Positions 27,786-48,061 of a stretch of 64,000 nt of DNA are shown piece after piece; the first letter of the stretch is position 1; the number at the start of each line of letters is the position of its first letter. The position numbers were made by a program, and so were the translations under genes. Origin of the DNA: Escherichia coli (GTDB lineage Bacteria > Pseudomonadota > Gammaproteobacteria > Enterobacterales > Enterobacteriaceae). The stretch is taken from the NCBI RefSeq assembly GCF_041886205.1, contig NZ_CP169029.1; one strand, given 5' to 3'. The notes below the pieces were generated by a model. The model was given only the letters and a program-made list of their open reading frames with translations. It had not been told where the DNA came from and did no database searches.

Positions 27786-28175
27786 TCAGGCGGCTGCACC
27801 CGCCGTTTTCTCGTACTTACTGATAGTGATCTCGACCTTCCCTTCCGGGATAACCGGTCCCCACTCCACCAGCATTCTTTTCACCTGGCTGTCGTCTTCC
27901 CACACACCCGCGTGGGTCAGGGCGTCAAACAGCGCCTTGTTATAGTTGTCCAGATCGCGGATCCGGTTATCCGGAGGAAACAACACGATCTCCACTGAAG
28001 CAAGTACCGACGTTGGTTTTGGCAGACGACGTAACTGCTCAACTATTGCTGCGCACGCCGCGCTCTGGAATTTTCGCCCCGCCGCGCTTATCAGGCTCTT
28101 ACCAGCAAACGCCCCTTTGTTGGGGTGTCGCCAGTACGTGTTCACGCTGGGCGGAAAAGGCAGGATCAGCTTCAT
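27786..28175 (-). CDS. rusA: RusA Holliday junction resolvase
   Basis: 129 aa; MKLILPFPPSVNTYWRH N-terminus characteristic of RusA. Confidence 0.8.
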   Translation of the reverse strand: MKLILPFPPSVNTYWRHPNKGAFAGKSLISAAGRKFQSAACAAIVEQLRRLPKPTSVLASVEIVLFPPDNRIRDLDNYNKALFDALTHAGVWEDDSQVKRMLVEWGPVIPEGKVEITISKYEKTAGAAA

Positions 28176-28498
28176 ACTTTCAGGCCCCTCTCATGTAACC
28201 AGTGGGTTGCACGCAGCCTTGCGTTTTCCTCACCGGCAAGCAGTGCGCGGATAATCCCGACCGCCTCGCTGTCGTCGTCCTTCACCGCGGTATGAAGCGT
28301 TATCCCCCGGGCCACGCCACGCTTTATCGTGATGACGCCTTTTTTCTCCAGTGCGCGAAGATGCTCTACCGCTGCATTCACTGAACGGTATCCCAGCATG
28401 GTTGCCACCTCCTGATTGGTTGGCGGAAAGCCACGCTCTTTCTGATAAGAAATCAGCATATCCAGCACCTGCTGCTGGCATTGAGTTAACGTCGTCAT
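28172..28498 (-). CDS. LexA DNA-binding-domain-like protein lacking S24 peptidase domain (start at internal Met MTTLTQ)
   Basis: Aligns by eye to host LexA residues 1-70 (e.g. GFPPTNQEVATMLGYRSVNAAVEHLRALEKKGVI vs [34 protein letters not shown]); ~108 aa total. Confidence 0.6.
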   Translation of the reverse strand: MTTLTQCQQQVLDMLISYQKERGFPPTNQEVATMLGYRSVNAAVEHLRALEKKGVITIKRGVARGITLHTAVKDDDSEAVGIIRALLAGEENARLRATHWLHERGLKV

Positions 28499-28992
28499 TA
28501 CGCCCCCACGTAATTCCCTGACAGATACCACTCATCACTCGATACAGCGCGCTTGCTGCTTTTCCGTAAACACTGCTCACGACGCGCCAGAAAATTGTTT
28601 CGTTCTGGCTGGGAGTGGCTTTCACGGAATGCCGCCATCCACACCGTTGCAGCACGACGGTATAAGCCCCTGGACTCCAGTTCTTCAGCCTGGCGGGTCA
28701 GGCACAAAATCTCCCGCGGGTCGTTAGTGCCGACATAGAAATTGCGCACAGGTCTGGTTTCACGAACTGGTTGCGGTTCTGCCTCCTGCGCTCTCTCAGT
28801 CAGGCGCGGGAAATGTCTGCGTGTATCCCCTTCACAACGGTGAGCCACACGACCACTCTGACGTAACTTGCTTGCTGACTGCAGAACGCGCTGCCGTGAG
28901 TAACCTGCAAAAGCATCCGCAATGTCTCTGGAAGTACACCCCGGATGGGCTTCAATGTATTTCTGAACTTCATTCAAAAGACTCATGATCAC
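28498..28992 (-). CDS. Winged-helix + PerC-like C-terminal domain protein (possible transcription regulator)
   Basis: 164 aa; C-terminal AEELESRGLYRRAATVWMAAF resembles PerC-family motif as recalled. Confidence 0.35.
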   Translation of the reverse strand: MIMSLLNEVQKYIEAHPGCTSRDIADAFAGYSRQRVLQSASKLRQSGRVAHRCEGDTRRHFPRLTERAQEAEPQPVRETRPVRNFYVGTNDPREILCLTRQAEELESRGLYRRAATVWMAAFRESHSQPERNNFLARREQCLRKSSKRAVSSDEWYLSGNYVGA

Positions 28993-29990
28993 CCCCTGAA
29001 TCCTGCTGGGATCTGGCTGTAGTCCACGTTGTCGTAACTGGCTTTGAAGTACGGGTCTTCGCGTTTTTCTGTGTACGTGCTGACGGACGGCGATAAGCGC
29101 AGGGAAAGCTCATCCCATTTTTCCCGCAGCTTCGACGGGCTGAGCACGTTACGGCACCAGAACGGATCGCGGCTGACGCGGCTGTACATCTCGCAGATTT
29201 GTTTGTGAGTACGACCATCCTGCACACACATCAGGCGAATTTCGTTTGCCCAGGCTGTCCAGTTCGGTTCTTTGGGACGAACCACCTCGCCGTCACATTC
29301 GGCAGCCTGCTCGTACAGGGCGATGATTTTTTTCCAGAGCCACTGTGCGCAGGTCAAATCATCCTGCGTCCCCCACTGGCGCTTTTTAGGGCTGAATACA
29401 ACCGCATCAGGATGGCGAGTTAAAAAATCCTGTTCAGCCGTCTGCGTGTCCGGTTGCGAAGAGTCCGGACGAGAAGGTTTTTTATCTGACGGATCATGTT
29501 TTGATTTTACTGACGGATCCCCGCCAGATTCTGACGGGTGAAAACCCGCTTTTTTGCCAGATTTCGACGCATCAAATTTTGACGGGTCAGATTTTGATGC
29601 GTCAGATTTTGACGGGTCAGATTTTGATGCGTCAGATTTTGACGGGTCAGATTTTGATGCGTCAGATTTTGACGGGTCAGAATCTGACAGTTGAGAAAAT
29701 GCCGCTGCCTGAAGCTTCGCAACGTTAAGCTGATAAACATTCGACGCATTGCGGTTACCCTGGCGACGCGCCTTACGCGTTAACCAGCCTTCTGCTTCCA
29801 GCCGTGCGATAGCCGTTCTGACGGTACTCATCCCCGCGCCAATCTGGCGTGCAATGGTTTCAATTGATGGCCAACACACACCTTCGTCATTACTGAAATC
29901 AGCCAGGCGGGCCATAATTGCCACGCTGGATAGCTTCATGCCTGACGCAGCGCAACCATCCCATACATAGCCGGTTAATTTAGTGCTCAT
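28989..29990 (-). CDS. Replication initiator-like protein with internal iterons
   Basis: 333 aa; N-terminal HTH-like segment; central (DASKSDPSKS)n repeat encoded by tandem DNA repeats. Confidence 0.55.
   Translation of the reverse strand: MSTKLTGYVWDGCAASGMKLSSVAIMARLADFSNDEGVCWPSIETIARQIGAGMSTVRTAIARLEAEGWLTRKARRQGNRNASNVYQLNVAKLQAAAFSQLSDSDPSKSDASKSDPSKSDASKSDPSKSDASKSDPSKFDASKSGKKAGFHPSESGGDPSVKSKHDPSDKKPSRPDSSQPDTQTAEQDFLTRHPDAVVFSPKKRQWGTQDDLTCAQWLWKKIIALYEQAAECDGEVVRPKEPNWTAWANEIRLMCVQDGRTHKQICEMYSRVSRDPFWCRNVLSPSKLREKWDELSLRLSPSVSTYTEKREDPYFKASYDNVDYSQIPAGFRG
29521..29690. repeat. Tandem direct repeats (30-bp unit x3 perfect plus degenerate flanking copies): candidate replication origin iterons
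   Basis: gacgggtcagattttgatgcgtcagatttt repeated at 29581-29670, partial copies either side. Confidence 0.65.
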
Positions 29991-29999
29991 GACCGACCT

Positions 30000-30338
30000 C
30001 TATTTCCCTGAATTTACGACGAAACTGTTCGAGCGGGCTGAAGCACTCATGCTCATAGCCTTCGCGGAGGTAGATAACCCGTTGTGTTTCCGGTTCCCAA
30101 CGAATGACTCTGACGGGCACTCCGTAGTGATCTTTGAACCAGCGGTTAACTTGTTGCAAAGGACTGTCTCCTTCTGCCGGTTGAAATCACCCACAGCCCA
30201 CTCTGCAAAGCTGTGGGTTACAATTTCCCTGTCACCTGGTACATTCACTGCATAGCAATACTCCACCTTCGCTTTTCCACCCGGTACAGGAAGCGCAATC
30301 AGTTGCGAGCGACGGTAGTGTGTTGTTAAACTGTTCAT
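30000..30338 (-). CDS. Hypothetical protein
   Basis: 112-aa ORF filling gap between regulatory gene and replication gene with 4-nt overlaps. Confidence 0.35.
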
Positions 30339-30919
30339 GCGTTAGTTTCTCCACAACCAGAAGCAATCGACGCCACGACGCCCGGAGCTGCACACTCGCG
30401 GGCGTTACTCTTTTCCGGCGCACAAAAAACACGAAATAACAGTGTTAAATGCTCCTGCCACTTCGCCATTACTTGGTAGCTGTTCTCTTCGATTTGCTCA
30501 CGCTCAGCCTGGTCAATAACTCCATCAGCAGTTGCCTTGCGTAAGTACTGGGAATGCTTGCCAATCCATTCTATTGACTCCATCAGCCGCTGATTAATGT
30601 CACCATTGTCAATGTCATCAATGACCACCAGCGGCACAAACACCCCATTACTACGACGGGCTATTGCATCTGTTACATGCCTGGTACCACTGGCATCCTG
30701 TAAAACCATGGCCCACTCAAGTGGAAAAATTTGATCCCCACCGCTACGCAGTCTGTTATGCAATTGATCTTTTGCTGGGGTGATATCATCAGATTTATAC
30801 AAACCAAGAATTTCTGCTGCTTCCTCATAGCCATGAGGTAAATCAGCAATCGTTCTTCGTATTGCTGCCACCAGCCATGCTGGTTGTTTATCAACTTTCC
30901 ATTCAGGTTCTTTACCCAC
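30335..30919 (-). CDS. Early regulatory protein in CII position (YdaT-like, uncertain)
   Basis: 194 aa directly downstream of Cro-like gene. Confidence 0.35.
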
Positions 30920-30946: not shown

Positions 30947-31144
30947 TTATGCCGCAGCACTGTTAGTCTTTTGATATAAAGACACGTCAACTTTCAGTTT
31001 CCCGTTAGTAATTTTTTCTAACTGGTACGCTCGGCCTTCAGGAATAATCTCAGGCCACTCTGAAACAGACGGATGCTTAATACCTAGGGCTTCGGCGGTT
31101 TTACAAACTCCGCCGAAATAATTAATCACGTCGGATTTCCGCAT
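30947..31144 (-). CDS. Cro-like HTH regulator (YdaS-like)
   Basis: 65 aa; divergent from CI-like repressor across operator region. Confidence 0.65.
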   Translation of the reverse strand: MRKSDVINYFGGVCKTAEALGIKHPSVSEWPEIIPEGRAYQLEKITNGKLKVDVSLYQKTNSAAA

Positions 31145-31239: not shown

Positions 31240-31893
31240 ATGATGAACATGAGTGATCGTATTCGCCAAAGGCGAAAAGAACTGAACCTGACACAACAAG
31301 CACTGGCTGATTTGACTGGTGTGAACCGTGTCACGGTTACTGGATGGGAAAAGGACGACTACCAACCAAATGGAGCCAACCTTCAAGCCCTAGCCAACGC
31401 ACTTAAATGCGATCCTCTGTGGCTTGTTAGCGGAAAAGGCTCGCCTGAACCAAAGATAAATCTAAAACCTGAAATATTCGCAGTTAAAAAAGTCCCCCTA
31501 ATCTCGTGGGTTCAGGCGGGTTCATGGACAATGACGGAGCCTGGTGTCAGGAAAGAAGATGCTGAAGAGTGGGTTTATACTACCGCCCTTGTATCAGAAA
31601 TGGCATTTGCACTACGGGTCCGTGGTGATTCAATGACCAATCCCCTCGGCTCACCATCGATACCAGAAGGTTCTATCGTTATCGTAGAGCCAGATATTAT
31701 TGATACAGAGTGTATTAACGGAAAAATCGTTGTTGCCCATATCAATGGTGGGCAAGAAGCGACACTCAAAAAATTTGTTGAGGACTGGCCGAACAGGTAT
31801 CTCGTCCCACTAAATCCTAACTATAAAACTATTGAATGCGGTGAGAACTGCAGAATAGTTGGTCTTGTCAAACAAGTAATAATGGATTTTTGA
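31240..31893 (+). CDS. CI-like repressor (HTH + LexA-like S24 autopeptidase domain)
   Basis: 217 aa; N-terminal HTH (RRKELNLTQQALADLTGVNRVTVTGWE); C-terminal GDSM serine and downstream Lys typical of S24. Confidence 0.85.
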   Translation: MMNMSDRIRQRRKELNLTQQALADLTGVNRVTVTGWEKDDYQPNGANLQALANALKCDPLWLVSGKGSPEPKINLKPEIFAVKKVPLISWVQAGSWTMTEPGVRKEDAEEWVYTTALVSEMAFALRVRGDSMTNPLGSPSIPEGSIVIVEPDIIDTECINGKIVVAHINGGQEATLKKFVEDWPNRYLVPLNPNYKTIECGENCRIVGLVKQVIMDF

Positions 31894-32009: not shown

Positions 32010-32352
32010 TGTTTTTAGAGTTGTGGTGAATGCGCAGGCTGATGCGCGAAAGACATTGCAGCTATTGCGGAAAAGAGCTGTTCGGCGGGGCAATTAAACG
32101 CCCGTGAGAGTCTGAAATAACCGCAAGCCGGAGATCAGCACCGGTCACCACAACAGCCACTGCTTTGGCGGTACCAGTTTGTACACTTGCTTCCGGCTGG
32201 TACCGCTCTTTTTACAAAACAGAGAAGAGCATCACCGGACGACGGGCTCATAACCCAATCCATCCGGGCGGCTGCCACCGCAGGTGTTCTTCTCTGTTTT
32301 GTGGAGAAACCAACCGACCTTACAGGGTCGATATGATGAGGAGCAGCAAAAT

Positions 32353-32713
32353 GGCTAGCGAACGCAGTACTGATGTGCAGGCATTTATCGGGGAGCTGGA
32401 CGGCGGCGTATTTGAAACCAAAATCGGCGCTGTTCTCAGTGAAGTCGCTTCCGGTGTGATGAACACGAAAACCAAAGGTAAGGTCTCGCTCAACCTGGAA
32501 ATCGAACCGTTTGATGAGAACCGTGTGAAAATCAAACACAAACTCTCATATGTTCGCCCGACTAACCGCGGGAAAATTTCCGAAGAAGACACCACCGAAA
32601 CGCCGATGTATGTCAATCGCGGTGGTCGCCTGACTATTCTGCAGGAAGACCAGGGACAATTACTGACTCTTGCCGGTGAACCTGACGGAAAACTCCGCGC
32701 AGCAGGTCATTAA
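32353..32713 (+). CDS. Hypothetical early protein (YfdP-like size; start uncertain)
   Basis: ORF-track ORF 32165-32713; shortened to internal Met to give ~120 aa. Confidence 0.35.
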
Positions 32714-32778
32714 TATCGTTCTTAATTAACTGATTATTTATCTCATCACTGAATATCTTTATATAGTGAGGACTTATT

Positions 32779-33603
32779 ATGTCTCAGAACTTAGACGCAA
32801 CCGCAATTAATCAAATCCATGCTCTTATTTCTGCTCAGGGTGTTAATGAAATTATCAGTAAGATTGGTGCCGATGCTGTGGCATTGCCTGAGAATTTCCG
32901 CATTCATGATCTGGAAAAATTTAATTTAAATCGCTTCCGTTTCCGTGGCGCGCTTTCCACTGCCAGCATCGATGATTTTACCCGTTATTCTAAAGATCTT
33001 GCAGATGAAGGCACCCGCTGCTTTATCGATGCTGATAATATGCGTGCCGTCAGTGTGCTTAACCTGGGTACTATTGATGAACCAGGTCACGCAGATAACA
33101 CCGCCACTCTCAAACTGAAAAAGACAGCACCGTTCTCTGCTCTGTTGTCTGTTAACGGCGAGCGTAACTCCCAGAAGTCACTGGCAGAATGGATTGAAGA
33201 CTGGGCCGACTACCTTGTAGGCTTTGATGCTAATGGTGACGCTATTCAGGCAACAAAAGCGGCTGCGGCTGTCCGTAAAATCACGATTGAAGCAAACCAG
33301 ACCGCTGATTTTGAAGATAATGACTTCAGCGGCAAACGCTCCCTGATGGAGTCTGTCGAAGCGAAGACCAAAGACATTATGCCAGTGGCATTTGAATTTA
33401 AATGCGTTCCGTTTGAAGGTCTGAAAGAACGTCCGTTTAAATTACGCCTCAGCATTATCACTGGCGATCGTCCTGTACTGGTTCTGCGCATTATTCAGCT
33501 GGAAGCGATGCAGGAAGAAATGGCTAACGAATTTCGTGATCTGCTTGTTGAGAAATTCAAAGACAGCAAAGTAGAAACCTTTATTGGTACTTTCACCGCC
33601 TGA
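32779..33603 (+). CDS. DUF2303-like early protein (YfdQ-like)
   Basis: 274 aa; size and position relative to HD-domain gene match CPS-53 yfdQ-yfdR arrangement as recalled. Confidence 0.45.
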
Positions 33604-33731
33604 TTTCATTACTGCAAATGCCCCTGCGGGGGCATTTATGGAAACGTAATTAACTCAATAATCACCGGATGGTGAGAGCTTCCTTTTAGCAGAATTCAGC
33701 GCGGTGCAGCGCATATAAAGTGGAGAACGAA

Positions 33732-34268
33732 ATGTCATTTATTAAAACTTTTTCCGGGAAGCATTTTTATTATGACAAGATAAATAAAGACGACATCGTG
33801 ATTAACGATATCGCAGTTTCCCTTTCAAATATCTGTCGCTTTGCAGGACATCTTTCACACTTCTACAGCGTCGCCCAGCATGCGGTGCTTTGCAGCCAGC
33901 TGGTACCGCAGGAATTTGCTTTTGAAGCGTTAATGCATGATGCAACAGAAGCATATTGCCAGGACATCCCCGCTCCACTGAAACGCCTTCTTCCTGACTA
34001 TAAACGGATGGAAGAAAAAATAGATGCCGTAATCCGTGAGAAATACGGGTTACCCCAGGTTATGAGCACGCCTGTGAAATATGCCGATCTCATCATGCTG
34101 GCAACCGAACGCCGCGATCTCGGGCTTGATGATGGCTCTTTCTGGCCTGTACTGGAAGGTATCCCGGCAACAGAGATGTTCAACGTGATTCCACTGGCTC
34201 CAGGCCATGCCTACGGGATGTTTATGGAACGCTTTAACGAATTATCGGAGTTACGCAAATGCGCATGA
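33732..34268 (+). CDS. HD-domain 5'-deoxynucleotidase-like protein (YfdR-like)
   Basis: HD motif (H...LMHDATEAY); ~178 aa from MSFIKT. Confidence 0.6.
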   Translation: MSFIKTFSGKHFYYDKINKDDIVINDIAVSLSNICRFAGHLSHFYSVAQHAVLCSQLVPQEFAFEALMHDATEAYCQDIPAPLKRLLPDYKRMEEKIDAVIREKYGLPQVMSTPVKYADLIMLATERRDLGLDDGSFWPVLEGIPATEMFNVIPLAPGHAYGMFMERFNELSELRKCA

Positions 34269-34771
34269 ATGTTTTCGAAATGGAAGGATTTCTTCGCGGG
34301 AAATGTGTACCGCGAGATCTGAAAGTGAATGAAACGGATGCTGAATATCTGGTGCGTAAATTTGCTGAAGCGGAGGCCAAGATTTCGGCTCTGTCCGAAG
34401 ACCAGCAGAGAGCGATTGAGTCAATTAAGCAGGCTGATGCAGCTGTAAAGTTGACACACGAGAAGTTTTCGGCGCTTGCGGCGGAGAATGAGCTGGCTCG
34501 TAAGGCAGTTCAGGCATTCTGCGATGTTGTTGGCGACAACACCGAGGTTATCGCTGAGGTGGTTGGGAGAGATGGCGTTCTGGTTATTTTGGAGGCCATG
34601 AAGGCAACAGGAAATATGCCTGCCACCGATGCTTTCCTGACTGAAGTCCGGGCGCATGGCGTGGAGATGGCTATGGAGCATATGCAGTCGAGCGGTTCGT
34701 TAACATTTGGAGATTGCTACATATCACTTAACGAGTTCGCCGCCCAGCTTCGCAAAGGAGGCGACCAGTGA
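34259..34771 (+). CDS. Hypothetical early protein
   Basis: 170-aa ORF overlapping neighbours by a few nt. Confidence 0.35.
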   Translation: MRMNVFEMEGFLRGKCVPRDLKVNETDAEYLVRKFAEAEAKISALSEDQQRAIESIKQADAAVKLTHEKFSALAAENELARKAVQAFCDVVGDNTEVIAEVVGRDGVLVILEAMKATGNMPATDAFLTEVRAHGVEMAMEHMQSSGSLTFGDCYISLNEFAAQLRKGGDQ

Positions 34772-35175
34772 GCAAGATTGACTATCAGGCACTGCGTGAG
34801 GCGGCAGAGAAAGCCGGTGAAGATAAGTGGCAGGCTAAAAAAATAAATGGTGATTTTTTCGTTATTCGTCACGGTAGTTATACAAGACAGCATGGCTACA
34901 CATCGTATCAACCCATTGCGGAGATTGATTGTAAGCCAGTCCGGGATTTTGTTGCCAAGGCTAATCCGGCTACCGTGCTGGAATTACTGGATGAACTGGA
35001 AGCAGCAAAAAAGCGCATAGCAGAACTGGAGGAGCGGGAAATACTGCTCCCGGAACGTAGCAGCATGCTTCATCGAACAGATTTTCACGATGATTACCAA
35101 ACGGTAATGGCATACAAAGTTTCTGAAGTCATCGATGCAATCCGCGCTACTGGCATTCGCATCAAAGGAGAGTGA
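34768..35175 (+). CDS. Hypothetical early protein
   Basis: 135-aa ORF, overlapping start. Confidence 0.35.
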   Translation: MSKIDYQALREAAEKAGEDKWQAKKINGDFFVIRHGSYTRQHGYTSYQPIAEIDCKPVRDFVAKANPATVLELLDELEAAKKRIAELEEREILLPERSSMLHRTDFHDDYQTVMAYKVSEVIDAIRATGIRIKGE

Positions 35176-35176
35176 T

Positions 35177-35440
35177 ATGGCAACTTTGACAAAAAAGGAA
35201 CAGGCATGGTTGAGCGAATTACAGAACGTTCTTGATCGCTGCCCGTCACCGAAAAAAATTGGTTTTTACACCATTGGCGATAAAAACATTTACCTGTATG
35301 ACCTACGCCGCATGGATGAAATCATGGAGGCTCTTGATAATCGTTCGTCAATGGATTGGTGTGTTGCTGTCCATGATATGAATGCCGGATTTGAAGAAAA
35401 GATTTTGTTCCCCTCGTCAGTTGAAAGCACAGCGGGTTAA
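35177..35440 (+). CDS. Hypothetical early protein (start at MATLTKK with GGAG RBS)
   Basis: ORF-track ORF 35135-35440 trimmed to Met with RBS. Confidence 0.3.
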   Translation: MATLTKKEQAWLSELQNVLDRCPSPKKIGFYTIGDKNIYLYDLRRMDEIMEALDNRSSMDWCVAVHDMNAGFEEKILFPSSVESTAG

Positions 35441-35450
35441 GGACTAACAC

Positions 35451-36467
35451 ATGACAACGTTCACCGACAAAGAACTGATTAAAGAAATCAAAGAGCGCAT
35501 AGGCAGCCTGGACGTTCGAGACAATATTGAGCGCCGGGCTTATGAAATAGCGTTAGCCTCGCTGGAAGCAGAACCGGTGGCCTGGCTGCATTCAGACAAC
35601 GGCTTAGGTATTCCGGCAATAACCCGGAGTAAAAACATTGCTGACAGTTGGTTATCGAATGGCTGGTATGTTCAGCCGCTATATATAGCCCAGCCAGTAC
35701 CGGTAATTCCTGATGAGGTGTTGTCCGCAATCCGGGAGGTTGCCAGGATTCGCGCCGATTTCGATGATTTTGACGGTGACAGGCGAGGTATCGGTGATTG
35801 TCTGGATGAGGCCGAGCAAGAGCTTATCGTTACCATTAACAAATATGCCAGTCAGTTGGCAGTAGAGCCGGTAGTGCCTGCTGTTCTGGAACGTTTGCGA
35901 ACCATTGTAGCGGACCCACGCGCATTACCTCGCAGAAAAGAATGGGTTAGTGGGCAGCAGTACAGTTACGTACTTCTCGAAAACGTAGAAGCTATGGTTG
36001 ATGAAGCCTGCCACGCTGCCATGCTTCAGGGTAGCCAACCTGTAAGCCAAACTTACAACTTGCCAGAATTAATCGAAGGCATGGAAGTTTCCATTGATGT
36101 AAGCACTTGTGATGCTGATTTAGGTAATCGCTATTTCGGCACCGTCACCGAGGCGTTAGAACTTGATACAGCCAAGAATGGTTACATCCTCCTGGTTCAG
36201 GACGCAGAGCCAAACTTCGATGTAAATGGCAACTCTCCGGGAACTCCGGATAGTTGGATAAGCTGTAGTGATCGAATGCCTGAAAAGGGCCAGAACGTGC
36301 TTATTTCGGTGAATTTCGATAGCTCTCTGGTTGAACCGCTAATATGCTCCGCACGCTATACCGGAAGCACCTTTCGGCGCGGAGATGCAACGATTAAGCC
36401 GGGTAATGGTATTGAGCAAGCAACTCACTGGATGCCGCTACCGGAACCGCCGCAGGAGGTGAAGTGA
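35451..36467 (+). CDS. Early protein with C-terminal DUF551-like domain
   Basis: 338 aa; C-terminal ...ATHWMPLPEPP motif. Confidence 0.35.
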   Translation: MTTFTDKELIKEIKERIGSLDVRDNIERRAYEIALASLEAEPVAWLHSDNGLGIPAITRSKNIADSWLSNGWYVQPLYIAQPVPVIPDEVLSAIREVARIRADFDDFDGDRRGIGDCLDEAEQELIVTINKYASQLAVEPVVPAVLERLRTIVADPRALPRRKEWVSGQQYSYVLLENVEAMVDEACHAAMLQGSQPVSQTYNLPELIEGMEVSIDVSTCDADLGNRYFGTVTEALELDTAKNGYILLVQDAEPNFDVNGNSPGTPDSWISCSDRMPEKGQNVLISVNFDSSLVEPLICSARYTGSTFRRGDATIKPGNGIEQATHWMPLPEPPQEVK

Positions 36468-37039
36468 TGAACAACTTAATGATCGACCTTGAGACGATGG
36501 GGAAAAATAAGGATGCACCGATCGTTTCCATTGGCGCGGTGTTCTTCACTCCAGAAACTGGAGACATCGGACAAGAATTCTATACGGTTGTTAGCCTGGA
36601 AAGTGCTATGGGGCAAGGAGCTACACCTGACGGCGATACCATCCTGTGGTGGTTGAAACAAAGCCCTGAAGCACGAGCTGCAATCTGTATTGATGATACT
36701 TTGTCGATCAGCGATGCTCTCTCAGAACTAAATCATTTCATTAACCGGCACGCAGCCAATACGAAATATTTAAAAGTCTGGGGTAACGGGGCCACCTTCG
36801 ACAACGTAATTTTACGTGGAGCTTATGAGCGAGCAGGACAAATCTGCCCGTGGGCATACTGGAATGACCACGATGTACGCACGATCGTTACGCTTGGGCG
36901 TTCCATCGGATTCGACCCCAAAATGGACATGCCTTTCGATGGCGAACGGCACAACGCCCTAGCCGATGCCCGTCATCAGGCAAAATATGTTTCCGCTATC
37001 TGGCAGAAATTAATTCCTGCCACCAGCACAGAATTATGA
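36464..37039 (+). CDS. DEDDh-type 3'-5' exonuclease
   Basis: 191 aa; MIDLETMG (D-x-E), internal acidic motifs and H-x4-D (HNALADARH). Confidence 0.65.
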   Translation: MMNNLMIDLETMGKNKDAPIVSIGAVFFTPETGDIGQEFYTVVSLESAMGQGATPDGDTILWWLKQSPEARAAICIDDTLSISDALSELNHFINRHAANTKYLKVWGNGATFDNVILRGAYERAGQICPWAYWNDHDVRTIVTLGRSIGFDPKMDMPFDGERHNALADARHQAKYVSAIWQKLIPATSTEL

Positions 37040-37075
37040 TTTTCCCGGGTGCAGCCGGTTTTGATGGAGAAAATT

Positions 37076-37348
37076 ATGAATACCTTGTTTTTACTGATGG
37101 CTGAATTCAATACCCCTAACATTGAACTCTCAGCAGTTAGCCAAAAGTACTTTGGCATGAGTCCAGCCACGGCAGAAGCAAAAGCAAACGCTTGTAAGTT
37201 GCCCGTTCCAACATATCGCATCGGCACATCACAAAAAGCAAAACGTTGCATCAATATTCAGGATCTTGCGGAATACATAGACAAAAGGCGAGAAGAAGGG
37301 CGTGCTGAGTGGGAAAGGGTCAGAACCCATAAACAAAGGCTCATTTAA
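37076..37348 (+). CDS. Small DNA-binding protein, excisionase/PrtN-like (uncertain)
   Basis: ~90 aa from MNTLFLL; FGMSPATAEAKANACKLPVPTYRIG resembles PrtN-type HTH as recalled; last gene before element terminus. Confidence 0.35.
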   Translation: MNTLFLLMAEFNTPNIELSAVSQKYFGMSPATAEAKANACKLPVPTYRIGTSQKAKRCINIQDLAEYIDKRREEGRAEWERVRTHKQRLI

Positions 37349-37356
37349 ATAGAATA

Positions 37357-37388
37357 TGAATAAACCCATCCAAAGATGGGTTTATTCA
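37357..37388. terminator. Bidirectional hairpin terminator between convergent genes
   Basis: tgaataaacccatc-caaa-gatgggtttattca, 14-bp perfect stem. Confidence 0.6.
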
Positions 37389-37852
37389 TAATGTTGAAGA
37401 GCAGCGAGTATCAGTTTTTTATGCCGTTTAACCATAGTTTTAGATATCTCAACTGCACATCGAACTTGTCTCATACAATGATCTGTAATGCGACCTTTTA
37501 GCACGTCACCATATTGGATGGCTATTTTCTCTTTAATAATTTCAAGATCGAAAGCAGCATGAGCCTCAATGCAATTAACAAATGAGTCCCATTTAAGAAA
37601 ATCATGGTCCTCTCTATTAATTTCGACCTGACAAGCCATAAGATCATTGTTTCTCTTAATAAATTCATTTATATCTGAATTTATTAGAAGAACTAAAAGA
37701 GGTTCACAGCAAACAACCACCATATATTTTACTTTAGGTGGGGTCGTAAAATCACAATGAAGATACAATACATCACCGGGTGATATACCTCTTTCACGAC
37801 TAAAATTAGCCTTAAAATCAGGAGGGAAACAATCACCCAGCATAAGTATCAA
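37382..37852 (-). CDS. Unknown 156-aa protein, downstream partner of Panacea-domain gene (candidate toxin/effector)
   Basis: 4-nt overlap with upstream gene; no recognisable family by eye; no predicted TM helix. Confidence 0.4.
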   Translation of the reverse strand: MILMLGDCFPPDFKANFSRERGISPGDVLYLHCDFTTPPKVKYMVVVCCEPLLVLLINSDINEFIKRNNDLMACQVEINREDHDFLKWDSFVNCIEAHAAFDLEIIKEKIAIQYGDVLKGRITDHCMRQVRCAVEISKTMVKRHKKLILAALQHYE

Positions 37853-38430
37853 TATCCGTTCTTCAGATAATCCAGTATTAATTTGCTATTTTTTAGCTGT
37901 GCAACTATCGATTCCAAAGACATCTCACCATTGTGATCTGCCTGTTCCCATGCCGCGTCATGGCTCATGGTTCTGATAGCTTCAAAGGACATGTTTCCAA
38001 GCATCGCGATAGACTTATCAATACACTCTAAATCTGAGTCACTAAAAAAGTCTTCATCAGCTTCACGGCTCGGCACAATCGTCATACCTGATACAGAAAA
38101 TGCTTTTCGCACAGAATCGACATCACAACCATTAGGAATGTAACGTCCATCTCCACGAGCAATTTTTATAATATCGTATGTGTTGCTTGCTACAGGCCCA
38201 TCCTTCATAGCGTTATAGTGATCGCCCGTTATGAGGCGTCCAAAACTTTCAAGGTGAAACCTGTCAGCATAATAAAGAATTTTTCCGACATGATAGATAT
38301 CTGGGATCGGTGCTTTAGAGGCGACGTACAGAATGGCCTCTAAAGCCTTTTCTGAATCAAACCTTACATTTAGCATCAATACACCCTTCATCCAAACAAC
38401 ATCGTCAAGCTCTGGCAAATGCAACCGCAT
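37849..38430 (-). CDS. Panacea/DUF4065 (SocA-like antitoxin) domain protein; true start may be internal Met
   Basis: Segment ALEAILYVASK...VGKILYYADRFHLESFGRLITGDHYNAMKDGPVASNTY fits the Panacea signature (LQKLLYYAQ...GPV) as recalled. Confidence 0.55.
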   Translation of the reverse strand: MRLHLPELDDVVWMKGVLMLNVRFDSEKALEAILYVASKAPIPDIYHVGKILYYADRFHLESFGRLITGDHYNAMKDGPVASNTYDIIKIARGDGRYIPNGCDVDSVRKAFSVSGMTIVPSREADEDFFSDSDLECIDKSIAMLGNMSFEAIRTMSHDAAWEQADHNGEMSLESIVAQLKNSKLILDYLKNGY

Positions 38431-38549
38431 CCGCCTTCTACAATCTTAAAGTCTTCACCTACGCTAGGTCAATTGAAGTGATGAGCAAATGATGCTTTCT
38501 AAGAAGAACAGGTTCCCAATAGGCTCCCACAAAGTGTATAACTACTTGT

Positions 38550-38675
38550 TTTTCAAAAACGGTACATCCTATCGAGCATTGGTGCAACGCTAAACCGACC
38601 ACTCCAGTGAACGTCAGTTTTTTCAGGCATTGCGCTGGTTTGGTTGATTTTTTGCATTTCAGAATTACCGTGCAT
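38550..38675 (-). pseudogene. dusA: Displaced 5' end of dusA (first ~35 codons) at the prophage attachment junction
   Basis: Minus-strand translation MHGNSEMQKINQTSAMPEKTDVHWSGRFSVAPMLD matches recalled DusA N-terminus, then diverges (RMYRF-stop). Confidence 0.6.
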
Positions 38676-38969
38676 TTTCAAATGTAGAGATTATTTTATC
38701 GATATATCATGGGGTTATGTTATTCAGCATCACTGTTCAGGAGGCTCAATAGCGGGGTACTATACCATAACAACAGGAAGCGCCTGTCTCATTGCAAAAG
38801 AAAATTGAGATCCTCTCAAGGCATGAAGCTCTCACGAAGTGATGGAAATAATCTTATTAGCCGTTAACTTTGTTAAGGCCAATGATAAACAATCCAGGTT
38901 CGACGATAAATAAAAAATCACACATTAAACTCCGGTGATATCTCCCCCTGCTAATAGCATTGATAGAGA

Positions 38970-39003
38970 AAAAAGAACCCAATAAATATTGGGTCCTTTT
39001 ATA
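38970..39003 (-). terminator. Intrinsic terminator downstream of 39038-40024
   Basis: minus strand ggacccaata-ttt-attgggttc hairpin followed by ttttttctc. Confidence 0.55.
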
Positions 39004-39037
39004 TAATGCCTTCCATACTATCGAAGAACTTCACATA

Positions 39038-40024
39038 TTATTTCTCCGATTTAACCCCGAACAAATCATAAATTAATTTAGAAGTGTCTGTAAGTATTTT
39101 AATCTCTTCCTTTGAGGTTGGGTCAAACGACTTCGCGAAGCTAATTAATTGTGGTGCAGCATCTCGCATTTTGCTTAAAATATCAGGATCGAGCGTTCCT
39201 TCATTCACCAGATGTGACATCTTATCCAGATAGCCATCAAAATTCATTTCTCCCCCATCAGCCAGACGCTTCATCTCTCCCAGGTACTTCTTCATATCAC
39301 GTTGAGATAATTTTTCAAACTGAGCTTTCAGGTAGCTCTCATTATTTTCATTAATATACACTGTTTCTGATAAATCTGCGTAGGCACTAGAATATGAAAG
39401 TGAAATTAACAGCGAAGCAAATAATTTTAAGCTGTTGTCATCATGTTCCTGGCAGGCATTAACAAACGTTAAAAAACCAGAACCTATTGCTTGAAAATGT
39501 ATATTCGCTAAAGGTTCATTATCCTTAGATTCCTCATAAAATAGCTGAACCGTGGAGGGAAGGTCATTCTTAGTTTCTACATCAAAAGTACATTGTTCAA
39601 TGGGCATTGCATCTTTATTATCCCCAAGATTACATATACTATTAATCGCGAAATGAAAAATAGCCCGGTCAACAACTGATGCAATAAAGTCACGATCGTT
39701 TAAATCCTCATCAGTGCAATCGTCAATATACTTATTGACCCACATTTTGAGATCATTTATTTGCTTAAGTAACATCACATTTTTTTTACGTGCATGCCAT
39801 AAATTATGCGTGATTCGTTGAATAAACAAATCTATTTTTGCAATAATTATATCCCGATGACGCAGCGCTGCATAATCAATAGATTTACCATATATATTAT
39901 TTAATTTACCTTTGATTGAACCTCTATTATCTAATTTATCTTTGATTGCATCTTCATTATCGAATTGATTTGAATTGAGTGTTTTATTAAAGTATCTAGT
40001 TGCACCGGGTATTATCTTCAACAT
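39038..40024 (-). CDS. AT-rich hypothetical protein on host side of att junction (occupies yjbL/yjbM position next to zur)
   Basis: 328-aa ORF, Asn/Lys/Asp-rich, low GC. Confidence 0.4.
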
Positions 40025-47839: not shown

Positions 47840-48061
47840 GCCGAACTCTCCGTTACATAACGTAAAGGCATTGTATCGCAGAAAAGTGTTTACGGGAGAT
47901 GTAAAGCAAATTAAGTGATCTAATGCGCAACAAAAACGCAACAATCGCATGAAGTGGTAAAACGCTGTTGAACCTTACGCTTTGCCGATGCCCGTGCTGG
48001 CGAGGGCAACCATAGGGGCATCACCGCCCATGATGCCAGGAACGGTGATGTTTTCCTTTAC

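Follow-up and report, generated by a model that had tools for sequence, protein, structure and literature searches.

Within a 64-kb stretch of the Escherichia coli chromosome (64,000 nucleotides of contig NZ_CP169029.1, hereafter the window), the early-right operon of a prophage lies on the minus strand and encodes a predicted lambda-O-type replication initiator, followed directly by a gene of the yfdN family whose product carries a PerC-like domain. No helicase or helicase loader is recognisable in this replication module. Comparison of the initiator with those of other phages and with the host protein DnaT suggests that a loader gene is absent because the initiator captures the host DnaB-DnaC complex itself, through a DnaT-like tail at its C-terminus, and that YfdN is an accessory protein and not the missing loader; we give this reading a probability of roughly 55%. 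We infer the contact of the tail with DnaC, or with the DnaB-DnaC complex, from the gene content of the module, the domain homologies of its products, the tail motif and the distribution of that motif among phages. The module itself is of a known, widespread "initiator-solo" type, that of SfIV, SfII, mEp460 and CPS-53, and what is new here is a specific and testable explanation based on the tail, which also bears on the function of DnaT.

A DnaT-like tail on the initiator

The initiator ends with the nine residues SQIPAGFRG (28992-29018), where E. coli DnaT ends SQIPPGFRG and YdaU of the K-12 Rac prophage ends SAIPPGFRG; the longer C-termini of the latter two read ...SEPDSQIPPGFRG and ...SLPDSAIPPGFRG, respectively. 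Both dnaT and ydaU lie directly upstream of a gene for a DnaC-type AAA+ loader (dnaC and the DnaC-like ydaV), whereas none follows the initiator in the prophage module. The resemblance is confined to the tail: the initiator was rejected as an overall homologue of DnaT, with BLASTP aligning the terminal nonapeptide alone, and, unlike DnaT and YdaU, it gave no match to the DnaT DNA-binding domain PF17948 at E <= 0.1 (3.7e-21 for the E. coli DnaT control) and has no DUF1376 domain.

In DnaT itself, the motif IPxGFRG stands at the C-terminus or no more than two residues from it in 103 of 104 full-length orthologues, and the terminal nine residues are conserved as strongly as the folded domain. A full-text literature search for PPGFRG, IPPGF or PAGFRG returned no paper discussing the motif, and searches on YfdN, on YdaU together with DnaT and on the DnaT tail turned up no functional study of it. 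Two of the collected sequences from other Enterobacteriaceae (P0263 and P0316) are DnaT-DnaC read-through fusions, in the first of which IPPGFRG continues directly into the N-terminus of DnaC; both probably stem from errors of gene calling or from frameshifts, yet they show how closely dnaT and dnaC abut.

Among phages, the tail is shared by initiators that otherwise differ. The last 24 residues, REDPYFKASYDNVDYSQIPAGFRG, are identical in the initiators of the window, of mEp460 and of strain PEC122 despite their differing N-domains, and one of these also has a different C-domain. Initiators with a Phg_2220_C (DnaD/G38P-like) domain, encoded beside YfdN homologues that are 27-33% identical, end in IP[ADEP]GFRG or ..GFRT, so that one tail is found on three initiator architectures: the lambda-O-like C-domain, the mEp460 type and Phg_2220_C. 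The last of these links relatives of the module to the DnaD-like organisers of Gram-positive phages, as Phg_2220_C is homologous to the C-domain of the G38P type; the initiator of the window differs from them in having an O-type C-domain. In phage SPP1, genes for a loader (G39P) and for a helicase (G40P) adjoin that for G38P.

To relate the tail to the kind of loader encoded next to it, we read the C-terminus of the open reading frame (ORF) directly upstream of the loader gene in about 80 IMG/VR loci per loader type, most of them close relatives of one another, so the counts that follow are not independent events. Upstream of a YdaV/DnaC-like gene, all 79 initiators carry the tail as IPPGF[RK]G, across at least four initiator architectures that include O-like C-domains. 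The tail is found in none of 80 initiators upstream of a lambda-P-like gene, all of which end TDWIYGV[DE]L, and in none of 71 upstream of a P22 gp12-like helicase. Where no loader lies downstream, among relatives of the window initiator, 75 of 80 carry it, and the remaining five ORFs are truncated. The O-like C-domain occurs in all three states, that is, with P, with a DnaC-like loader and with no loader; the tail thus appears to go with the type of loader and not with the type of C-domain. More distantly, two Vibrio phages with Phg_2220_C initiators carry an IstB/DnaC-like ATPase of their own, and one of these initiators ends ..KKPEGFK.

The tail could instead have nothing to do with helicase recruitment, serving as a degradation or single-stranded DNA-binding element or arising as a by-product of overlap with a ribosome-binding site together with a recombination junction. 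DnaT without residues 154-179 does show lower cooperativity in binding single-stranded DNA (PMC4132743), the tail codons of the phage initiator overlap the Shine-Dalgarno sequence of the next gene, and nucleotide homology between mosaic phages starts near the tail. However, the tail arginine codon differs by locus (AGG, AGA or CGC) while the peptide is constant, which argues for selection on the peptide and not on the overlapping ribosome-binding site, and we rejected Shine-Dalgarno overlap as the sole source of the conservation on these grounds. The peptide is also kept in front of different downstream genes, the motif is nearly invariant in chromosomal DnaT, and its presence tracks the loader type in every locus sampled, all of which makes a role apart from helicase recruitment very unlikely.

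Search for a helicase or loader gene

The initial annotation had reported a replication module lacking a recognisable helicase or loader, and this is borne out by domain scans, translated searches and the annotation of relatives. Pfam scans of 20 early-operon proteins found no helicase or loader family. In tblastn searches of the window and of the SfIV genome, none of the queries (DnaC of E. coli, YdaV of Rac, P of lambda and two DnaC-like proteins of Vibrio phages) gave a match at E <= 1, and neither the annotated 54-gene SfIV genome (RefSeq) nor a related prophage annotated by PGAP lists a loader or helicase. Accordingly, no gene of the window was found by the four DnaC-type tblastn queries or the early-gene Pfam scans to encode a DnaC/IstB AAA+ domain (IstB_IS21/DnaC type). 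The absence of a helicase rests on the early-gene Pfam scans and the annotations of the two relatives, as no DnaB query was run on the window; for the structural-gene ORFs, not all of which were scanned against Pfam, the absence of a loader rests on the relatives' annotation and tblastn. The window may stop short of the far left end of the prophage.

A lambda-O-type initiator with probable internal iterons

Apart from its tail, the initiator is of the lambda O type by its domain homologies, having a predicted N-terminal winged helix, predicted internal iterons and an O-homologous C-domain. It matches Pfam HTH_36 (E 4.7e-11, residues 23-70), with weak matches to DnaD_N and RP-C, and PHROG 391, "replication initiation O-like" (E 9.5e-134). 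Its C-domain aligns with residues 139-270 of lambda O at 36% identity over 149 aa (tblastn, E 4e-23); in lambda O, this domain is the part that contacts P. Searches of PDB chains by sequence and profile with the initiator and with the YfdN family returned generic MarR-type winged helices or no match.

Between the two domains, 15-bp tandem repeats that are probably origin iterons encode the linker DPSKSDASKS, with degenerate copies extending to about 29500. This arrangement within the initiator gene mirrors that of the lambda origin inside gene O. The number of 15-bp units (the DPSKS/DASKS repeat) varies among near-identical relatives (loci L009-L088), giving initiators of 308, 313, 318, 323, 325 or 333 aa.

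The module further resembles that of lambda in its place in the early-right operon, after cro- and cII-like genes, and in the accessory nin-type genes (RusA, DUF968) that precede a Q antiterminator. It departs from lambda in having no P gene or other P-type loader downstream of the initiator, and in an initiator that ends IPAGFRG and not TDWIYGVDL as in the lambda O type.

Proposed route of helicase recruitment

The initial annotation had raised the possibility that the phage recruits host DnaB and DnaC by another route, and this is the reading that the evidence favors. Recruitment of host DnaC-DnaB by mimicry of the DnaT tail appears likeliest because the initiator ends like DnaT and YdaU and because this ending tracks DnaC-type loaders (79/79 vs 0/80 and 0/71). 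Under such a scheme, the N-terminal winged helix of the initiator would bind the iterons inside its own gene; the protein would keep the lambda-O-type C-domain, with IPxGFRG in place of the P-associated tail of lambda O; the DnaT-like tail would capture the host DnaB-DnaC complex; and the initiator would thereby deliver DnaB to the opened origin. The pairs O-P, DopC-DopE and DnaT-DnaC have been set side by side before as related two-gene systems (Brezellec et al. 2017, PMC5509034).

Several observations weigh against capture of the host complex by the tail. When the C-terminal 45 residues of the initiator were attached to E. coli DnaC by a 30-residue Gly-Ser linker and the fusion was modeled with AlphaFold2, DnaC was predicted at a pLDDT of 70-95, while the tail stayed below 50 and did not dock on DnaC; the model was of monomeric DnaC and so speaks neither for nor against binding to the hexameric DnaB-DnaC complex, its alignment held nine paired DnaC-plus-tail rows in addition to unpaired rows, and the C-terminus was left free. 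A 2026 preprimosome structure suggests that the N-terminal domain of DnaT, and not its C-terminus, recruits DnaB/DnaC, by a mechanism that "remains unknown" (PMC13377028). The initiator of the second of the two distant Vibrio phages is paired with a DnaC-like gene and has no tail motif. The counts of about 80 loci each come from close relatives and thus are not phylogenetically independent. Finally, YfdN may have a part in replication after all, as its gene keeps strictly to the place behind the initiator gene, is translationally coupled to it and is conserved to as little as 27% identity.

The YfdN-family protein

The PerC-like gene, named yfdN by PGAP as is the CPS-53 gene of K-12, was first listed as an ORF of 164 aa at 28498-28992 with a GTG start at 28992, and residue numbers below follow that ORF. 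Its true start is probably the ATG at 28986, giving a protein of 162 aa that begins MSLLNEV, as this codon lies 2 nt past the initiator stop (TGA, 28989-28991), is served by an AGGGGG Shine-Dalgarno sequence and is where homologues begin as well.

The winged-helix N-terminus and PerC-like C-terminal motif that had been described for this protein were both recovered. In the AlphaFold2 prediction, residues 4-58 (28819-28983) fold as a winged helix and residues 92-149 (28546-28719) as the three helices of the PerC-like domain; residues 59-90 between them form a disordered linker, and the C-terminal tail, with its conserved WYLSGNYVGA (28501-28530), is disordered as well. The motif AEELESRGLYRRAATVW occupies residues 102-118, within a match to Pfam PerC (PF06069) over residues 100-154 (E 7.4e-10, 39.4 bits vs a cut-off of 22.6). 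The hidden Markov model search of 28498-28992 that had been proposed as a check therefore yields PerC and no helicase-loader homology. The protein also matches PHROG 1324 (E 1.3e-76), and it scores 22.3 bits, under the cut-off of 32, against the ANR family model NF033650. It shares its C-terminal helices, including the LE..GL.RRAA.VW motif, with the PerC/Pch regulators of enteropathogenic and enterohemorrhagic E. coli, but adds to them the N-terminal winged helix, the long disordered linker and the conserved tail, and sits in a replication operon. The winged helix is predicted to bind DNA, and PerC-like helical domains, as modeled here, may be of the kind that usually binds other proteins.

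A search of 1.84 billion proteins found 161 representatives of the family at E <= 0.001, and the family alignment shows the architecture to be kept to about 25% identity, including a C-terminal motif [WY][YFL][LM][AS]G[RNH][YF]xG; relatives in this search that match the PerC part alone are short (55-130 aa). In diverged members, the gene comes directly after that of a tail-bearing initiator; downstream of it are a DNA methylase gene from one of four families, in most cases a LexA_DNA_bind gene, and the gene for RusA. The C-terminus of YfdN (..WYLSGNYVGA, ..YLAGRFVG in homologues) is loosely like the ..IPAGFRG of the initiator and DnaT in its order of a hydrophobic residue, any residue, A/S, G, an aromatic or basic residue, any residue and G, a likeness that may be due to chance.

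The initial annotation had placed a PerC-like regulator where a loader would be expected, and this did not hold. The YfdN profile matches 270-aa DUF1627/YdaW proteins through their winged helices (E 5e-10 to 1e-6), and in Rac-type modules these proteins follow the DnaC-like gene, so that the gene after the replication genes of the Rac YdaU-YdaV-YdaW module has a winged helix homologous to that of YfdN. Because of this shared winged helix, we place YfdN in the slot after the loader and regard the loader slot itself as empty. YfdN is also weakly like lambda Ren, the gene for which follows P (PHROG 142, E 3.6e-4; hhalign E 0.002, 14% probability).

One could still suppose that YfdN takes the part of lambda P as a loader or adaptor of a new, non-AAA+ kind, binding the initiator along with host DnaB or DnaB-DnaC and bringing the helicase to the origin. 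Its gene is directly downstream of the initiator gene and translationally coupled to it, the order of the two persists at 27-33% identity while other downstream genes change, and the conserved, disordered C-terminal motif is typical of a partner-binding peptide. In addition, over-expression of a UTI89 fragment of five prophage genes, including yfdN2, led to filamentation (PMC6206680). We nonetheless consider such a loader highly improbable, given that the tail is found without it: in the deposited genomes of phages Eeyore, Kp4882-3 and KpnBHU6, in IMG/VR contig L079 and in prophage PEC122, a tail-bearing initiator is followed by a methylase or other small gene, and neither an intact YfdN nor a loader was found in the stretches of these five that were read, with at most a remnant of yfdN in PEC122. 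Moreover, the DUF1627/YdaW proteins that share its winged helix follow DnaC-like loaders and do not replace them, one distant family member adjoins RecT instead of an initiator, and YfdN has no likeness in sequence or fold to lambda P, DnaC or any solved structure. A relationship to lambda P (PF06992) was rejected, with an hhalign probability of 0.2% and no Pfam match, and a Foldseek search of the PDB with the YfdN model gave nothing significant, the best hits (E 0.8) being MIT/TPR-like three-helix peptide-binding domains and none a loader fold. In PEC122 (locus L003), an 84-nt pseudogene fragment (28582-28665) is all that lies between the tail-bearing initiator gene and the Dam gene; it is possibly what remains of yfdN, which would make this locus a natural deletion.

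With the tail as the proposed means of helicase capture, YfdN is most likely an accessory regulator or adaptor, predicted to be dispensable for replication itself and not the missing loader. A more far-reaching idea, which we regard as a long shot, is that YfdN-type proteins are peptide-binding replication adaptors and not transcription factors, such that the PerC-like domain or the protein's own tail would engage the initiator tail or host DnaC-DnaB, while YfdN, kept at the origin by its winged helix, would thereby tune or license helicase capture. If that were true, the virulence "activators" of the PerC/Pch type would derive from a domain that served as a replication adaptor in phages. In the literature, yfdN figures as the PerC homologue of K-12, and the group 1 Pch proteins are reported to be strong activators of ler and PchD and PchE, outside that group, to be minimal ones; yfdN was deleted from the reporter strain in those ler assays, and YfdN was not among the proteins assayed (PMC5931665). 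As to annotation, our results speak against naming genes of the YfdN family "loaders" and against treating them as proven "transcriptional activators".

Distribution of the module and Chi sites

Over the 2-kb stretch that holds the module, identity is 97-98% with the Shigella phages SfIV and SfII and with Kati, SKA5 and other E. coli phages, and for part of the stretch with mEp460 and the Stx2c phages. The Stx2c-converting phages have the YfdN and LexA-like genes as well. SfIV, SfII and mEp460 are inducible or plaque-forming phages. As the module is present in these phages and is matched in 3366 of 5426 complete E. coli genomes, it evidently works.

A module with an O homologue and no helicase or loader has been described in 34 of 314 lambdoid phages, with a replication said, in the passages searched, to be "not yet understood" (Zheng et al. 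2025, PMC12315714). The prophage shares with LLS and mEp460_4F5 of this O-only group, as those passages describe them, the lack of a Rec module and the many co-oriented Chi sites, and mEp460_4F5 shares this DNA with 96.5% identity across 75% of the query. The same passages leave the mechanism open and do not mention a tail or a YfdN gene. In the prophage, the Chi sequence GCTGGTGG occurs 16 times within 13952-37027, 15 times on the minus strand, and the window as a whole has 22 sites where 2.15 are expected. No Rec module (Red, Erf or RecT) was found in the early-left operon (32165-37348, plus strand).

These traits would also fit a phage that does not need helicase loading directed by the initiator and replicates mainly through RecBCD at Chi, RecA D-loops and host PriA-PriB-DnaT-DnaC restart. 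The related phage LLS grows better with RecBCD, according to the passages searched in PMC12315714, and the initiator could just as well enter the PriA/PriB pathway by means of a DnaT-like tail. However, a conserved initiator that is predicted to bind an origin and has internal iterons argues for origin-specific initiation, and the tracking of DnaC-type loaders by the tail (79/79 vs 0/80 and 0/71) is a pattern not expected were its partner PriA or PriB. The other form of this explanation, in which host DnaA acts at the origin, finds no relaxed DnaA box (TTWTNCACA) in window positions 1-40000, which include the origin. Loading that bypasses the initiator is therefore unlikely.

If the tail of the initiator does capture DnaB-DnaC, one nine-residue C-terminal motif would answer two questions. 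The first is how the helicase is loaded in the common O-only lambdoid phages, including Shigella serotype-converting phages; the second is how the handover from E. coli DnaT to DnaB-DnaC takes place during replication restart, which in 2026 was still described as unknown. The explanation can be tested, and if it holds, phages that lack a loader in this way should occur only in hosts with DnaC.

Organization of the locus

Positions of the genes and features are collected in Table 1; they agree with those initially assigned, with slight corrections to the start codons of the YfdN gene (ATG 28986) and the LexA-like gene (ATG 28498).

Table 1. Genes and features of the prophage early-right region, in window coordinates
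Feature	Position	Strand	Basis or remark
cI-like S24 repressor gene	31240-31893	+	Faces the operon genes
P22-Cro-like gene	30947-31144	-	First of operon, opposite the cI-like repressor
YmfL/CII-like gene	30335-30919	-	Second in operon
DUF4222 gene, 59 aa	29980-30159	-	Pfam DUF4222, E 6.1e-19; directly upstream of the initiator gene, overlapping its start
Replication initiator gene, 333 aa	28989-29990	-	HTH_36, PHROG 391, lambda O similarity
HTH_36 winged-helix domain of initiator	29781-29924	-	Residues 23-70
Probable origin iterons, consensus CAGATTTTGACGGGT (+ strand)	29558-29681		8.3 tandem copies of a 15-bp unit; Tandem Repeats Finder score 178-220
Lambda-O-type C-domain of initiator	29100-29540	-	tblastn vs lambda O residues 139-270
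Conserved initiator tail REDPYFKASYDNVDYSQIPAGFRG	28992-29063	-	Comparison of initiators
YfdN-family (PerC-like) gene, 162 aa	28498-28986	-	Pfam PerC, PHROG 1324, AlphaFold2 model
LexA-type DNA-binding-domain-only gene, 108 aa	28172-28498	-	Pfam LexA_DNA_bind, E 3.7e-19
RusA Holliday-junction resolvase gene	27786-28175	-	Pfam RusA, E 5.2e-14

The junctions read in the DNA show the initiator, YfdN, LexA-like and RusA genes to be translationally coupled: beyond the initiator-YfdN junction described above, the TAA stop of YfdN overlaps the ATG of the LexA-like gene (TAATG), and the stop of the latter overlaps the start of RusA (ATGA). RusA is followed in the operon by a KilA-N gene, a DUF968 gene and a Q-like antiterminator. 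The gene after YfdN had been called LexA-like, and this stands for the DNA-binding domain; Pfam found no S24 peptidase domain in the 108-aa product, which is too short for one, and by its domain content the protein corresponds to a LexA repressor in its DNA-binding domain only. Such LexA_DNA_bind proteins without an S24 domain recur in distant relatives (loci L089, L091, L093 and L094), and some related modules also have the DUF4222 gene that lies upstream of the initiator. DNA methylases of four families (Dam PF05869, MT-A70, MethyltransfD12 and a 409-444-aa Dam fusion) recur in relatives between the initiator/YfdN genes and RusA.

At the right end of the prophage (37382-38430, minus strand), a 156-aa ORF without a Pfam match lies with a 193-aa ORF, and at the matching position the PGAP-annotated relative has a gene with a Panacea (SocA-like antitoxin) domain followed by a 105-nt 5' fragment of dusA. 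This suggests that the phage integrates at dusA and carries a toxin-antitoxin or defence pair at its end. The flanking chromosome, among zur, dinF, lexA, plsB and ubiA/ubiC, contains low-GC islands at 38000-40000 (37% GC) and 48000-50000 (35% GC), to which the relative's annotation assigns a DUF2713 gene and a SopA-like gene, the latter a pseudogene in that relative.

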